A stretch of DNA of 64,000 bases from a plasmid. The stretch lies in assembly GCF_053078305.1 (NCBI RefSeq), contig NZ_CP166875.1, one strand, 5' to 3'. Under the pieces are notes generated by a model. The model saw nothing but the letters and a program-made list of their open reading frames with translations. It searched no databases and was not told the origin of the DNA. Position numbers and translations under genes: made by a program. Of this stretch, positions 9,059 through 63,062 are shown in pieces; the first letter of the stretch is position 1, and each line of letters opens with the position of its first letter.

Positions 9059-9931
9059 TCAGGGTGAGGCTGTGGCCAGCCGTGTGTAGTTGTTGTTCCG
9101 CGACATTATCATGCGTTCCTTCACGCGACGGTCGATTTCGCGCTTCACGGCCTCCAGGCTTCCCCGGAAACGCCCTTCCGCGATTTCACGTGTCAGCTGC
9201 CGTTTCACCAGGGTGACAATGTCCTGACGGGTCCTGCCTGCATCGCGGCGCGCACGGGCACGTTTCATGCCGTGGGACTTAAGCTCTGCCTGATAACTGC
9301 GGAAACGCTCGCGCACAAAACGCCAGGCTCTCGCTATCAGTTCATCCATACCCAGCGCATCCAGCCCCTGCTTTTTGCGCAGCTTGTTTTCCCATTCCAC
9401 GCGGCTGCGGCGTGCGGAAGCCACTGCCTCTTCTGAGATATCAAGTGAGTCAAACAGTGCCGGCGTGAACGTGATGTCGGTCGGGATGTTACAGCCAATT
9501 GTCGGGTCGTATTCCGTCTGGTAGGTTATCAGCCCCAGCTCAGACAGGAACTTCAGGGCACGGGTGGCACGGGTGATGGAGAGTTTCCCGGCCTCAGACT
9601 CCGTCGCCAGTCCGCACTCAATGGCCAGCGTGGTGATGGAGCACTGGACGCGGTTGGCCAGCGGATCGTAGTGGAAACACAGCCCCTGCAGCAGCGCATC
9701 AATCGCCCGGCGGCGCAGCACCGGCGGCATACGCCGGCGCAGGCCGCGCGAACGGGCATACGCCACATGCGCGGCAAAATCAAAACGGGAGGTGAAGCCC
9801 ACCGCCTTTTCCATCAGTTTTTCGCAGAACTTCAGCGTCCCGGCATCTTCACGGGGTGTGAAGACCGGATTCGGGTTCTTTACCTGACGGTATGTGCTTT
9901 CAGTAAATGAGGTCTGGTTCAGGGCCGCCAC
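9059..9931 (-). CDS. repA: RepA1-type replication initiator (IncFII / I-complex family)
   Basis: 290 aa; ...[99 protein letters not shown]... closely matches IncFII RepA1 as recalled; start codon uncertain (GTG in ORF track). Confidence 0.85.
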
Positions 9932-56340: not shown

Positions 56341-56991
56341 ATGAACAAAACGAAAAGCAGATATCCTTCCTGGTGGGCATATTACCACTTGGCCCGCAAC
56401 GCTTATTTCTTATTAGGAATACCGTGTTTACTTTTATACTCAGCCGCTTATACATCAGATTTATTAGATGATAATCTAAGACATTCAACAAGCCTTTTTA
56501 TTTTGGCATATGGATGTTATTTTCTTCTTTTTATTCCCCCACTCTGGCTATATCTGAGAACTAAGGCAAAGAAAAAGAAAATCCTACAGGTTGTTAAGAA
56601 GATAAAAGAAAGCAGTCCCTTTGCGCCGACCAGCGATTACGAGCAACTGTCATTCTCGAAGAGTTGCTATTTCGGGATCGACATTAAAAACGGCACCATG
56701 CTGTATGTGCGCATTTACCCAAACAATGTCATGGATGTGATTGGTCTGGATATTCACAACTTCACCCGAACAGTTGCTGAAGACGGCAAGCTGGAAATCC
56801 ACACCACCTATGTGAGTCTGCCGATGATCCCTCTTGAAATCTCCGGCATCTCAGCAAGGACGCTGGCCAACACCATGCACACCATGGCTGCACGTGGATA
56901 TGAGTACAAGGAACGTTTCCCACAGATGATCCGGTATCGGGTTAAAGAGTGGGAAAAAGTTGCCGGTGTTCCTGTTGCAGAAGTATTTTGA
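56341..56991 (+). CDS. excA: entry-exclusion protein ExcA-like
   Basis: 216 aa with N-terminal TM helices, directly after the traY-like gene as in IncI plasmids; 5' half AT-rich. Confidence 0.5.
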   Translation: MNKTKSRYPSWWAYYHLARNAYFLLGIPCLLLYSAAYTSDLLDDNLRHSTSLFILAYGCYFLLFIPPLWLYLRTKAKKKKILQVVKKIKESSPFAPTSDYEQLSFSKSCYFGIDIKNGTMLYVRIYPNNVMDVIGLDIHNFTRTVAEDGKLEIHTTYVSLPMIPLEISGISARTLANTMHTMAARGYEYKERFPQMIRYRVKEWEKVAGVPVAEVF

Positions 56992-57023
56992 GGTAGCTAT
57001 CAACTGTTAGACGATAATCCGTC

Positions 57024-57056
57024 AGCCGGTTTTCTCTGAACCGGCTTTTTCTTTTC
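57024..57056 (+). terminator. rho-independent terminator after the transfer operon
   Basis: Perfect 8-bp stem AGCCGGTT / AACCGGCT with 7-nt loop followed by TTTTTCTTTT. Confidence 0.5.
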
Positions 57057-57176
57057 AGGCAGAATGCCTGTCTGCCGTCTATCTCAGGACGCCGCATGGA
57101 GTCTCTATGTTTTCCCCACAAATTCTTAGCACTGTCTTGCCCACTGTAGACAAAATCAATACAATTCTGCATATCA

Positions 57177-57195
57177 GTTATCTATAAAAGATAAC
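57177..57195. promoter_or_regulatory. palindromic operator-like site upstream of the 527-aa gene
   Basis: GTTATCT-ATAAA-AGATAAC, perfect 7-bp inverted repeat about 70 bp upstream of ATG 57265 in AT-rich DNA. Confidence 0.35.
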
Positions 57196-57264
57196 AATAT
57201 CATTATAAATAATTATCATATCCACACACTCAAGGCAGTACCTAGAAAACATAAAGATAAAATC

Positions 57265-58848
57265 ATGTCTACCCGCAGCAATTTTCCAGCACGACATGGT
57301 ACTCCATGGAATACTGAAGAGTTACAGCGTCTTCTCGTATCCATAGCGGAGGGCGTCTCGCTAAAAAAACTTACTCAAACACATCAACGATCGTCCGGGG
57401 GAATACGTGGAGCAATCAAACGCCTGCTTCCTTCTGAGTTTCTTGAGTTCAACGATATAAACACGGTGAATGATCTCAGCAATTACTTCAACAAGATTCC
57501 TCGCCAAGAACACAATAGTATCATCAATAATTTAATATCATTGAGCACTGCAAAAACAATTGCTCATGATAAAGTTGAAATACAAAAGAATAGTTTTAAA
57601 CAAAATACCCCACTCCCCCTCTGCCAACCCAATACAGATTTTAAAGATTATATAGCCGATGAACATGATGTCATTATGCTAATTCATTCTGCTATCGAAA
57701 GTTTATCTAATAAACGACATCAATATATTCTTCTAATGCGACTCGGCACAGATGATTCACCTCATTCTCTGGCAGATATTGCCGTCAAATTAGGAATTTC
57801 CCGTGAAAGGGTAAGACAACTTCAGGAACGAGCCCTTGGCTTACTAGCTGCTAAATCTCGCTATGAAGGGACACCTGGAGCTTGCCTTAAAGCCCTTATT
57901 AACTCAATAGGTAATTCACCATATGATATAGCAGTATGGATTTATCGTATTGTTCATCGGGATTTCGTTACATCCTCTGACTTAGCCGCCAAATTCATTA
58001 TTTTTACCGCAGGCATTCCTAAAGCAAGACGAGATGAAATAAAAAGTTCGCTCTCATTAATATCACAATTACAAAAGCAGAGGTTACGTGAACGAAGAGC
58101 AGAATTAGCACACGCTCGCGCTCAGGAAAGAGCCCGAATCAAGAAAGAAAGAGTTGAGTTCATATTCAGTAAATGGCTAGACAATACACATTGGCCAAAA
58201 TATATCGCACCTCCTCCCCCCGTAGAACAGCTATGTTCACAGAGAGCGGTTAATGATACTGACATATCTGGATTCTTTTACTCTCAAAAATTAGGTCGTA
58301 CAGTCCAGTACGAATCAGGGCTTGAGTTTAAAATAATGAATCTATTAGAATGTTGCGATCAGGTTCTTTTCTATCAAGAACAACCATTTTCTATTCCATA
58401 TTGTTTTAAAAACAAATCAAAAAAATACTATCCAGATTTACTCATTGCGACAGTTGATGGTCGGTGCCTACTTATGGAAGTGAAGCCAACAGACCGAATG
58501 ACCTTGAGTCTCACGAGAATAAAAAGTAATGCAGGTCGCAAATGGGCACATACTCGAGGATGGGGATGGTTGGTCATTAGTGATAGGTTCTCGTTACGTC
58601 AGCTGGAAGAACATGCCATCTCAACAAACACATGGAAACTTATAGAGGCTGAACTGAAAACATCAAGGATTTTAGCATGGCGTGAAATGATGGAGTTACG
58701 TACACGATACGAGATTCATCGTTTAGATCTTATTGCATATATCATTCAGTCTGGTGCTGAAGTGGATAACTTTTATCGAATTACCCCGAAAATATCTAAT
58801 AATACATCTAACCAGAGACAACTAAATGAGAGCGACTGTCATAATTGA
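57265..58848 (+). CDS. multidomain protein: N-terminal HTH, sigma-70 region-4-like HTH, C-terminal PD-(D/E)xK nuclease-like domain
   Basis: 527 aa, AT-rich. Residues ~10-50 HTH-like (WNTEELQRLLVSIAEGVSLKKL); ~150-210 sigma region-4 pattern (HQYILLMRLGTDDSPHSLADIAVKLGISRERVRQLQERALGLL); C-terminus has E...PD-x13-E-x-K (GLEFKI...YYPDLLIATVDGRCLLMEVKP). Confidence 0.6.
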   Translation: MSTRSNFPARHGTPWNTEELQRLLVSIAEGVSLKKLTQTHQRSSGGIRGAIKRLLPSEFLEFNDINTVNDLSNYFNKIPRQEHNSIINNLISLSTAKTIAHDKVEIQKNSFKQNTPLPLCQPNTDFKDYIADEHDVIMLIHSAIESLSNKRHQYILLMRLGTDDSPHSLADIAVKLGISRERVRQLQERALGLLAAKSRYEGTPGACLKALINSIGNSPYDIAVWIYRIVHRDFVTSSDLAAKFIIFTAGIPKARRDEIKSSLSLISQLQKQRLRERRAELAHARAQERARIKKERVEFIFSKWLDNTHWPKYIAPPPPVEQLCSQRAVNDTDISGFFYSQKLGRTVQYESGLEFKIMNLLECCDQVLFYQEQPFSIPYCFKNKSKKYYPDLLIATVDGRCLLMEVKPTDRMTLSLTRIKSNAGRKWAHTRGWGWLVISDRFSLRQLEEHAISTNTWKLIEAELKTSRILAWREMMELRTRYEIHRLDLIAYIIQSGAEVDNFYRITPKISNNTSNQRQLNESDCHN

Positions 58849-59467
58849 TGACGCACAGGACGGAAAAAATAATAGCTGCCGGACAGCAGCAACCAGCAGT
58901 CGTCCGGTAAAAAAGACAAACAAGGCGCATTGAGGTCAGCCTTCGCAACAATCCGGCGGCAGATTCTCTACCGCCGTGTTGCCCGTTAACGTTTAACTTC
59001 GTAGGCTAACGTTGCCACAAGCACCGTATTTCCCTGCTCGATACGAAATCCGCAAAGCGAATCCCTCACCATCCAGACAAAACACAGTATCGTCACACAG
59101 ACGACGATTAACATCATTAAAAACGTTCGTTGTGGCATCGCAGCCCCTCCATTGCCTTTCGGCCGTCATCGGGCTACTATAATGTTGTTGAGGCATTACA
59201 GTGGGCCCTGGGTTGATTGATAAAAAAATCGCCTGGGGCTTTCTGCTACATGCCGTCCACAAAACGCTTTCGGCATACAGCCTCAAGCGCCCGCCGCTAT
59301 TCTAATCGTTTTCCAGTCCGCCACAATCCTTTTCATGCCACCACGTATTTTGTGTCAGGGACAGAAATAAAGCCGGAAAGTGACTACGTGTGCACACATC
59401 TGTTTTCCGGGCTGCAGGCATCGTGTTATTTTCTGAAATGCAAAATAATAAAAAACAAGGACACATC

Positions 59468-62434: not shown

Positions 62435-62530
62435 TCAGTCAACCAGTTCCCGGATCAGTTCCAGGAGAGCTATCACTGCGTTAGCCACAGCAACAACCGC
62501 CCTGAGAACGATGATTAACAGGTTAATCAT
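62435..62530 (-). CDS. 31-aa hydrophobic peptide, type I toxin-like (TisB/ZorO-like), copy 1
   Basis: Reverse-strand ATG (62528-62530) preceded by GGAG Shine-Dalgarno; MINLLIIVLRAVVAVANAVIALLELIRELVD; near-identical copy at 63119-63214. Confidence 0.45.
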   Translation of the reverse strand: MINLLIIVLRAVVAVANAVIALLELIRELVD

Positions 62531-62755
62531 CCGCTTCTCCATCAATGGAGAAAGAACACCGTGGTTTGCCCTTACATTGCCTGTCGCCACGTTTTCTATA
62601 GTGTCAGTTATAGACAGTTCTTCTCCGGCCAGAGCACCAAAACCAGCACCACCTGATGTTTTGGCCAGGACTTGCAACCTGTTCATCCCGGTGAACGATA
62701 TGCCGGAAAGAACGTGCCTCAAAGCTGACACACCGAGTATATACTTATACTGTGC

Positions 62756-62784
62756 TTGCAGAAATATTATTTCAGCCGTATTAT
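62756..62784 (+). promoter_or_regulatory. sigma-70-like promoter for a short plus-strand transcript upstream (on the coding strand) of toxin copy 1
   Basis: TTGCAG -35 (62756-62761), 17-bp spacer, TATTAT -10 (62779-62784); about 90 nt downstream is an A-run / hairpin / T-run element (62844-62877). Confidence 0.35.
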
Positions 62785-62957
62785 TTCATAGTCAGTTATA
62801 GGCAGTTATCTTCCGGTCAGGGCTACCAACTTCGATCCGGAATCGCAAAAAAACCGGCCTCACCAGTCGGTTTTTTTGCGTCTGTACCTCCTCCCCGGAC
62901 AGCAGTTCTCTCACTCCCGTTGAATATTTCCTGTTGAATTTTACGAAAATACGGCAA

Positions 62958-63062
62958 ATGGGAGATATCGAATATATTTCCTTGGGTGTAGTCGGTAAAA
63001 ACCAGCTCATGTTTGACTCACAGAAACAGGCTCTGGAAGTACAGAAAGTAATCTGTCCGTAG
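62958..63062 (+). CDS. truncated paralog of the 58-aa small protein (34 aa)
   Basis: MGDIEYISLGVVGKNQLMFDSQKQALEVQKVICP, similar to residues 25-55 of the 62196 ORF; weak RBS, possibly degenerate. Confidence 0.2.
   Translation: MGDIEYISLGVVGKNQLMFDSQKQALEVQKVICP

Follow-up and report, generated by a model that had tools for sequence, protein, structure and literature searches.

What is the function of a protein that joins two helix-turn-helix (HTH) modules, one of them resembling region 4 of sigma-70, to a nuclease domain, when its gene stands alone on a conjugative plasmid? The question is posed by a 64,000-nucleotide stretch of the plasmid contig NZ_CP166875.1 (assembly GCF_053078305.1; here called the window, to which positions refer unless a locus is named), in which an open reading frame (ORF) of 527 amino acids (aa) with an ATG start lies between excA and a hok-type toxin ORF. 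The original prediction, made from the letters alone, had singled out this stand-alone gene as acquired cargo and a candidate defence factor. Its span, 57177-58848, had the correct end, but position 57177 is the first base of a palindrome and the coding sequence starts at 57265. We hypothesize, giving the idea an even chance, that the product is a stand-alone, HTH-guided DNA endonuclease acting as a defence or inter-element conflict module against mobile genetic elements. The basis for a defence function is circumstantial, and consists of association, from the neighbourhoods of homologs, and of analogy with the Rpn nucleases (PMC10400941). The protein is organized as follows.

57265..58848, plus strand: coding sequence of the HTH-HTH-nuclease protein, 527 aa, from the ORF list
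57292..57435, plus strand: tri-helical HTH resembling Myb/SANT or the GcrA DNA-binding domain, residues ~10-57, by fold match only
57661..57855, plus strand: sigma-70 region-4 HTH, residues 133-197, from Pfam, profile search and a four-helix domain in the AlphaFold2 model
58021..58182, plus strand: single 54-residue helix, residues 253-306, in the AlphaFold2 model
58252..58584, plus strand: predicted TnsA-fold PD-(D/E)xK nuclease core, residues 330-440, from Pfam, Foldseek and conservation; alpha/beta in the AlphaFold2 model
58324-58326, 58435-58437, 58477-58479 and 58483-58485, plus strand: putative catalytic residues E354, D391, E405 and K407, respectively, from conservation and fold
58594..58764, plus strand: helical domain after the nuclease core, residues 444-500 (444-496 in the AlphaFold2 model)

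Pfam detects Tn7_TnsA-like_N at residues 365-439 (E 1.7e-11), and the best structural match of the nuclease region is Tn7 TnsA. With Foldseek, the C-terminal ~200 residues align to TnsA over 222-234 columns, lengths that would take in the helical domain after the core. This search places the C-terminal part in the TnsA nuclease fold and not in a non-nuclease fold. It also shows that the domain order, which had been described as the reverse of that of TnsA, is better viewed as two HTH modules added N-terminally to a TnsA-like region. The PD-x13-ExK motif that had been read from the translation is real, with P390-D391 encoded by cca gat at 58432-58437 and L-M-E405-V-K407 at 58471-58485. Among 77 homologs, the most distant at 22% identity, three residues (E354, E405 and K407) do not vary, P390 and D391 are 99% conserved, and K342, S351, E372, Q373, Y388 and K420 of the nuclease domain are likewise invariant. 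Residues 330-440 are thus a TnsA-fold PD-(D/E)xK catalytic core with predicted activity.

TnsA is the endonuclease subunit of the heteromeric Tn7 transposase (PDB 1f1z, 1t0f), and the common nuclease-core fold raises the possibility that the gene is an orphan or decaying TnsA from a Tn7-like transposon. In addition to the Pfam and structural matches, weak sequence similarity to one TnsA of a CRISPR-associated transposon (E 3.5e-4), which aligns via the same nuclease motifs, fits such an origin. However, the plasmid gene is not accompanied by TnsB, TnsC, TnsD or transposon ends, and its product has ~330 extra N-terminal residues with two HTH modules and a long helix. No TnsB (DDE) or TnsC (AAA+) gene was found within 8-10 kb on the plasmid, nor within 10 kb in any of the ~20 homolog contexts inspected, and with the NCBIfam TnsA-like model NF033179 the protein reaches 46.8 bits, below the cut-off of 110. 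Moreover, the fusion of the sigma-4 domain to the nuclease is kept from Proteobacteria to Actinobacteria, with ratios of nonsynonymous to synonymous substitution (dN/dS) well below 1 (0.10-0.32 between cassette homologs). Therefore, the proteins constitute a family in its own right and not a remnant, and we regard descent as a transposon orphan as effectively refuted.

The HTH at residues 133-197 is related to sigma-70 region 4, as had been claimed: Pfam matches Sigma70_r4 at residues 149-192 (E 2.2e-8), and the family profile matches region 4 of primary sigma factors in the PDB with E ~1e-20. As in region 4 of primary (group 1) sigma-70, the recognition helix reads (I/V)(S/T)RER(V/I)RQ. Among the 77 homologs, R159 is invariant, Q185 is conserved at 99%, E181, R182 and R184 at 97% each, R151 at 95% and R180 at 81%; G161, T168 and L169 also belong to the most conserved positions of the domain, with T168 and L169 in the same range of 81-100%. 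We aligned the domain by hand to the C-terminus of E. coli sigma-70. In this alignment R151, R159, G161, T168 and L169 presumably correspond to R554, R562, G564, T572 and L573 of sigma-70, and R180, E181, R182, R184 and Q185, we assume, to R584, E585, R586, R588 and Q589. In sigma-70 structures, these residues are reported to make contact with the bases and backbone of the -35 hexamer (Campbell et al. 2002, PDB 1KU7). From this pattern of conservation, we infer that the module would bind duplex DNA in the manner of sigma region 4.

In contrast to sigma-70, the 527-aa protein does not have regions 1-3, and it can therefore not act as a sigma factor. There is no Pfam match to Sigma70_r2 in the protein, and the NCBIfam sigma matches cover only the last ~50-110 model positions, far below their cut-offs. 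With region 4 present but region 2 absent, assignment to the sigma-70 family of sigma factors was rejected. A different use of the same resemblance would be mimicry. The module could act as an integrated mimic of host sigma domain 4, which docks the nuclease on the beta-flap of RNA polymerase or baits phage anti-sigma factors; seizure of the module by anti-sigma factors of the T4 AsiA type or the G1 gp67 type would then trigger DNA cleavage, and the protein would be a single-protein 'integrated decoy' immune sensor on conjugative plasmids. We consider this improbable. The conserved positions of the domain appear to be DNA-facing. In sequence, the domain resembles sigma factors of other phyla as much as E. 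coli RpoD, and its best sigma matches in the PDB come from Thermotoga, Streptomyces, Mycobacterium and Bacillus, an observation that speaks weakly against mimicry. The basic activator-contact patch KALRKLRH of E. coli sigma-70 is not kept, and reads RALGLLAA in the 527-aa protein.

The remaining parts of the protein were described with an AlphaFold2 model, built on 77 homologs, with a mean predicted local distance difference test (pLDDT) score of 91.8. The N-terminal module consists of three helices (17-28, 33-40 and 44-54) and is followed by more helices to ~residue 109, which overlap a low-confidence stretch (pLDDT <50 at 105-116; blocks at 101-120 with means of 44-48). For the N-terminal domain no Pfam or PDB sequence match was found, and its assignment comes from the fold match alone. 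A helical bundle at residues 204-248 follows the sigma-4 domain, and the 54-residue helix that comes next may serve as a dimerisation or spacer element.

The family is large and widespread. HMMER, run exhaustively against 1.84 billion cluster representatives, retrieved 442 proteins with E<=1e-10, of which 57 reach E<=1e-30; each of them represents a cluster at 50% identity. Many members are only 370-390 aa long and start at the sigma-4 domain, and the core architecture therefore consists of sigma-4, helices and TnsA-like nuclease, with the Myb-like domain being specific to a clade: it is present in relatives of ~40-60% identity and missing from many of the shorter ones. Full-length relatives with 40-60% identity occur in Pectobacterium, Dickeya, Salmonella, Providencia, Buttiauxella, Mangrovibacter and Xanthomonas, and also in Yersinia, Serratia and Pantoea. 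Distant relatives are found in actinomycetes, in Anaerolineae and in a prophage insertion of Mycobacterium abscessus. A genome scan with a 19-sequence profile retrieved mostly genuine sigma factors beyond the first ~10 loci.

The original prediction had not recognised the gene as any characterised plasmid gene. Full-text literature searches indeed found no functional study of the family, but it has not gone wholly unnoticed, since RefSeq has given it a domain name and the homolog in the M. abscessus prophage insertion is mentioned in passing (PMC9934374). That homolog, gene 94 of the Mycobacterium phage prophiT36-1 (locus L015), is 30% identical and lies in a 22.5-kb duplicated insertion, which also holds three consecutive tyrosine-integrase-like genes, a helicase and an AAA ATPase. 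Searches of NCBIfam and PHROGs returned no named family for the 527-aa protein, with all NCBIfam matches below threshold.

On the plasmid, the gene is confined to a segment with sharp borders.

57080..58921, no strand assigned: accessory single-gene cassette of 1.84 kb, absent from the IncK2/Z plasmid p550

Plasmid p550 (locus L002) has the same excA allele and the hok gene without the cassette. Its homology to the window ends at ~57079 and restarts at ~58918-58922, with ~160 bp of unrelated filler between, and the segment specific to the window comprises one gene and its upstream region. A megablast search of 56990-59000 against 72,556 plasmids found at least 80% of this query in 286 of the 1866 flank-sharing plasmid records (~15%). 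Another I-complex plasmid holds a HEAT-repeat ORF and an IS66 element between excA and hok, and the site is therefore a hot spot for cargo. In I-complex (IncK2/Z, IncI-gamma/K1) plasmids, the gene is an accessory passenger located at this hot spot between excA and hok/pnd, as had been suspected from its composition: its GC content lies at 0.38-0.42, compared with 0.55-0.62 for traY and the tra genes upstream of it; excA is likewise AT-rich (0.38-0.40). A place in the I-complex backbone was rejected on the basis of the 286 of 1866 records and of the absence of the gene from p550 and pND12_96. Nor is it a named backbone gene; the RefSeq name refers to the domain. No terminal inverted repeat of at least 14 nucleotides (nt; up to two mismatches allowed) was found at the borders of the cassettes in the window, Pectobacterium, Salmonella and Providencia, and no target-site duplication was found at 57080..58921. 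The cassette segment is present in 268 of 5426 complete E. coli genomes (at least 80% of it in 208), where it is always plasmid-borne and never chromosomal.

Copies on plasmids are frequently disrupted, by deletion, IS1 insertion (one copy) or frameshift. Split or unannotated copies occur, and plasmids of Shiga toxin-producing E. coli have only 5' fragments that retain the first ~100 codons. The gene is under purifying selection, yet often truncated. In p92-9000 of Shigella dysenteriae (locus L017), an in-frame internal deletion of 1365 bp, corresponding to 57311-58675 of the window, has occurred at a CATGG microhomology (junction at ~2499-2504 of the locus), which spares the upstream region and a 72-codon remnant.

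Outside the I-complex, the gene travels in a comparable form. A unit of 1.83-1.97 kb is common to Pectobacterium, Salmonella and Providencia at ~89% nucleotide identity in three unrelated settings; its ends lie ~130-165 bp before and ~60-240 bp after the gene. No conserved neighbour or partner gene was found in the ~20 contexts, which form a small sample and include distant actinobacterial and Anaerolineae loci. By raw count, ~6 of the ~20 independent contexts have a known defence gene at a distance of 10 kb or less. One homolog is located between Gabija (GajA 892 bits, GajB 765 bits; upstream) and McrBC (downstream) in an island with a P4-type integrase. Others adjoin an LmuB-like SMC protein together with SIR2_2 and GmrSD, lie ~3 kb from a BREX brxA-brxB-brxC-pglX cluster, adjoin an HNH gene resembling those of phosphorothioate restriction together with a tyrosine recombinase, or are found near an OLD-TOPRIM ATPase. 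Homologs also occur in ssrA-linked integrase islands, and on a Providencia plasmid with CHAT and resolvase genes.

Two loci from this survey have further features. The Pectobacterium cassette is bracketed by a 26-nt direct repeat, TGCATTAATTATTGGGGAACAGGTCA / TGTATTAATCAATGGAGAGCAGGTCA (L004:9860-9885 and L004:11846-11871), and a similar leader is present at ~9838-9890 in loci L008 and L013. Because the repeat brackets the homolog cassette, the next Pectobacterium cassette, located before McrBC, begins with the same leader; it contains three largely unannotated genes (734, 643 and 327 aa), the third with a weak ZorA-like match. The repeat may provide both cassettes with a promoter, or allow island cassettes to be shuffled by recombination. 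On the F-like plasmid contig L100 (8997-9749, 18219-20444), a homolog of the P0027 cluster, 43% identical, represents a second, independent acquisition by a plasmid; its neighbours are a GIY-YIG nuclease of the LEM-3 type, an antirestriction gene, RadC and a KAP NTPase, with traM close by.

Insertion of such a cassette, one gene plus its upstream region with sharply defined ends, into unrelated contexts would also be expected of a nuclease gene that is selfish or toxic, similar to a homing endonuclease or an addiction module, and that persists via its own spread or retention and not via host protection. The solitary copies between housekeeping genes, the patchy distribution across species and the frequent disruption of plasmid copies are consistent with this explanation. 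However, homing requires a conserved target, whereas the cassette has unrelated flanks in all contexts inspected; neither terminal inverted repeats nor target duplications were found, no autonomous transposase of this fold is known (PMC10400941), and an antitoxin-like partner is not visible. In E. coli, moreover, the plasmid copies are at one site in one excA lineage, which resembles vertical inheritance more than invasion. A selfish gene is therefore unlikely in our judgement, and a free-standing homing endonuclease in particular was rejected, because the flanks are unrelated among Pectobacterium, Salmonella, Providencia and the E. coli plasmids and terminal repeats are missing.

A second explanation that starts from the mobile setting is that of a factor for DNA transactions or regulation of mobile elements, such as a helper in site-specific nicking or recombination or a repressor of promoter-like DNA, with the nuclease serving to maintain the element and not to wage conflict. 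The two sequence-reading HTH modules, one with -35-type contacts, would suit such a task, as would the occurrence of the gene in integrase islands and on three plasmids, unrelated to each other, that are conjugative or carry partition genes; one copy on an F-like plasmid is adjacent to traM, RadC and an antirestriction gene. Yet related plasmids do without the gene, neither a partner nor an associated site recurs with it, many homologs lie on chromosomes outside any recognisable element, and the full catalytic tetrad, superfluous for a pure repressor, is invariant. We therefore rate this possibility as low, at the same level as that of a selfish gene. One variant of it, a regulator-nuclease of plasmid establishment, had been offered in the original prediction and finds no support: homologs are mostly not on plasmids, and, by the transfer order of IncI plasmids, the gene is presumably far from the leading region.

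We return to the hypothesis of an HTH-guided nuclease in defence or inter-element conflict, which could operate as follows. The gene would travel as a single-gene cassette with its own upstream region. The HTH modules would dock the protein on duplex DNA, probably as a dimer via the 54-residue helix, and the docked nuclease would cut the bound DNA in a Mg2+-dependent reaction. Its role would be to defend the carrier cell, and hence the plasmid, against phages or rival mobile elements. Such a protein must spare its own cell, and three options fit the data: dependence on DNA modification, similar to type IV restriction; tight repression with activation on infection; and abortive infection. We speculate that the modification-dependent mode is attractive, considering the neighbouring McrBC, GmrSD and phosphorothioate-dependent HNH genes and the GcrA-like fold of the putative reader.

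Several observations weigh against a defence function. About one third of the homolog contexts are solitary insertions among housekeeping genes, including transporters and regulators, with no defence gene within 10 kb; in addition, the sample of ~20 contexts is small and is set against no formal background rate. In PADLOC v2 (PADLOC-DB v2.0.0) there is no real match, the only one being SspB (E 5.6e-4, 17 bits, residues 170-250). Host DNA would offer numerous sites to a nuclease with -35-type contacts in its HTH, and a candidate partner for immunity, such as a methyltransferase or an antitoxin, is not apparent. Finally, frequent truncation fits a costly defence gene and a dispensable or toxic selfish gene equally.

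The absence of an adjacent cognate DNA methyltransferase, with only excA, hok/sok and small ORFs as neighbours in the window, led us to reject a type II restriction-modification system; no partner is kept in the homolog loci either. Among the solitary, modification-dependent (type IV) restriction nucleases, Mrr and GmrSD have a comparable organization, as single genes that combine a DNA-reader domain with a nuclease and need no methyltransferase. Homologs adjoin genes of this functional class (McrBC, GmrSD and the HNH gene resembling those of phosphorothioate-dependent restriction), although no homology to the reader or nuclease domains of Mrr, McrBC or GmrSD was detected. MzaA of the MZA anti-phage system provides an example of a sigma-70-type HTH in a defence context, as is proposed for the candidate here, and matches residues 103-201 weakly in NCBIfam (27 bits against a cut-off of 800); it differs in that MZA comprises several genes, and outside this region the two proteins are unrelated. 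A TnsA-like nuclease domain is shared with the 'head completion' nucleases of the phage T4 gp4 type (phrog_218, E 1.2e-11; PMC7824862), and the PHROG 'head closure' match refers to this T4 gp4 TnsA-like nuclease. In contrast to the 527-aa protein, these nucleases are small, associated with the virion and devoid of HTH modules, and their genes belong to structural operons of phages. The Rpn proteins are solo PD-(D/E)xK nucleases that have spread horizontally, were once annotated as transposase-like, and were shown to be toxic and antiphage (PMC10400941). Like Rpn of E. coli, the protein studied here is a solo nuclease of this superfamily spread by horizontal transfer; unlike it, it belongs to another PD-(D/E)xK family, and Rpn is controlled by an intragenic antitoxin.

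The gene, which rides on I-complex conjugative plasmids, occurs in ~4-5% of complete E. coli genomes and on many plasmids of Shigella sonnei. Should its product restrict phages or DNA entering the cell, a factor carried by plasmids would influence gene flow and phage susceptibility in clinical Enterobacteriaceae, and a new defence architecture would be added in which a DNA-reading domain of housekeeping-sigma type is fused to a TnsA-fold nuclease. Such a role would also correct the misleading labels 'TnsA endonuclease domain protein' and 'sigma factor-like', which imply a transposon part or a transcription factor, and a functional assignment would annotate many genomes, because the family has 442 representatives. 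RefSeq names the near-identical 528-aa WP_000004560 solely by domain, as 'TnsA endonuclease N-terminal domain-containing protein'; the candidate defence factor described here is a single-gene HTH-nuclease with an unusual sigma-4 fusion.

The region around the coding sequence contains the following elements.

57024..57055, plus strand: intrinsic terminator of excA, with a 9-bp stem, a 5-nt loop and a T-run (hairpin at 57024-57046)
57137-57165, plus strand: weak sigma-70 promoter-like match TTGCCC-17-TACAAT
57177..57195, no strand assigned: perfect 7-N5-7 palindrome GTTATCTATAAAAGATAAC (GTTATCT-N5-AGATAAC), the single occurrence in the window
57191-57219, plus strand: weak sigma-70 promoter-like match ATAACA-17-TATCAT
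58873..58895, minus strand: hairpin with T-run, inside cassette-specific DNA, terminator-like for the convergent hok/pnd transcript

The terminator that had been proposed to precede the gene is present after excA, in DNA common to plasmids without the 527-aa gene. The promoter-like matches at 57137..57219 are no more numerous than in shuffled sequence. The best promoter-like match of the region (ATGACA-16-TATAAT, 11/12) is intragenic and antisense, at 57647-57674 on the minus strand, and may be a chance match in AT-rich DNA or belong to an antisense regulator. The palindrome is located where it had been noted, but it does not stand out from chance: an equal or better perfect inverted repeat occurs in 10.7% of shuffles of the 185-bp upstream region, and the palindrome was not found upstream of homologs. 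An operator at this position is possible, and for the same two reasons we dropped the palindrome as evidence.

Upstream of the gene, excA occupies 56341-56991 on the plus strand. Immediately downstream, the hok-type toxin ORF (58986-59138, minus strand) is convergent to it, and belongs to a pnd/hok-sok type I toxin-antitoxin locus at 58986-59292 (minus strand) with a 50-aa Hok-family ORF and the sok antisense RNA at 59136-59292 (Rfam RF01794, 124.7 bits). The near-identical region of the Shigella sonnei plasmid NZ_CP022458 is annotated in its record in the order traW-traX-DotA/TraY-excA, the gene, hok, and further on a thermonuclease and trbABC. For window positions ~62435-63010, the record of the matching plasmid lists two type I toxin genes (DinQ-like DqlB), and an AgrB antisense RNA is located at 62792-62879 on the plus strand (RF02891, 47.7 bits).

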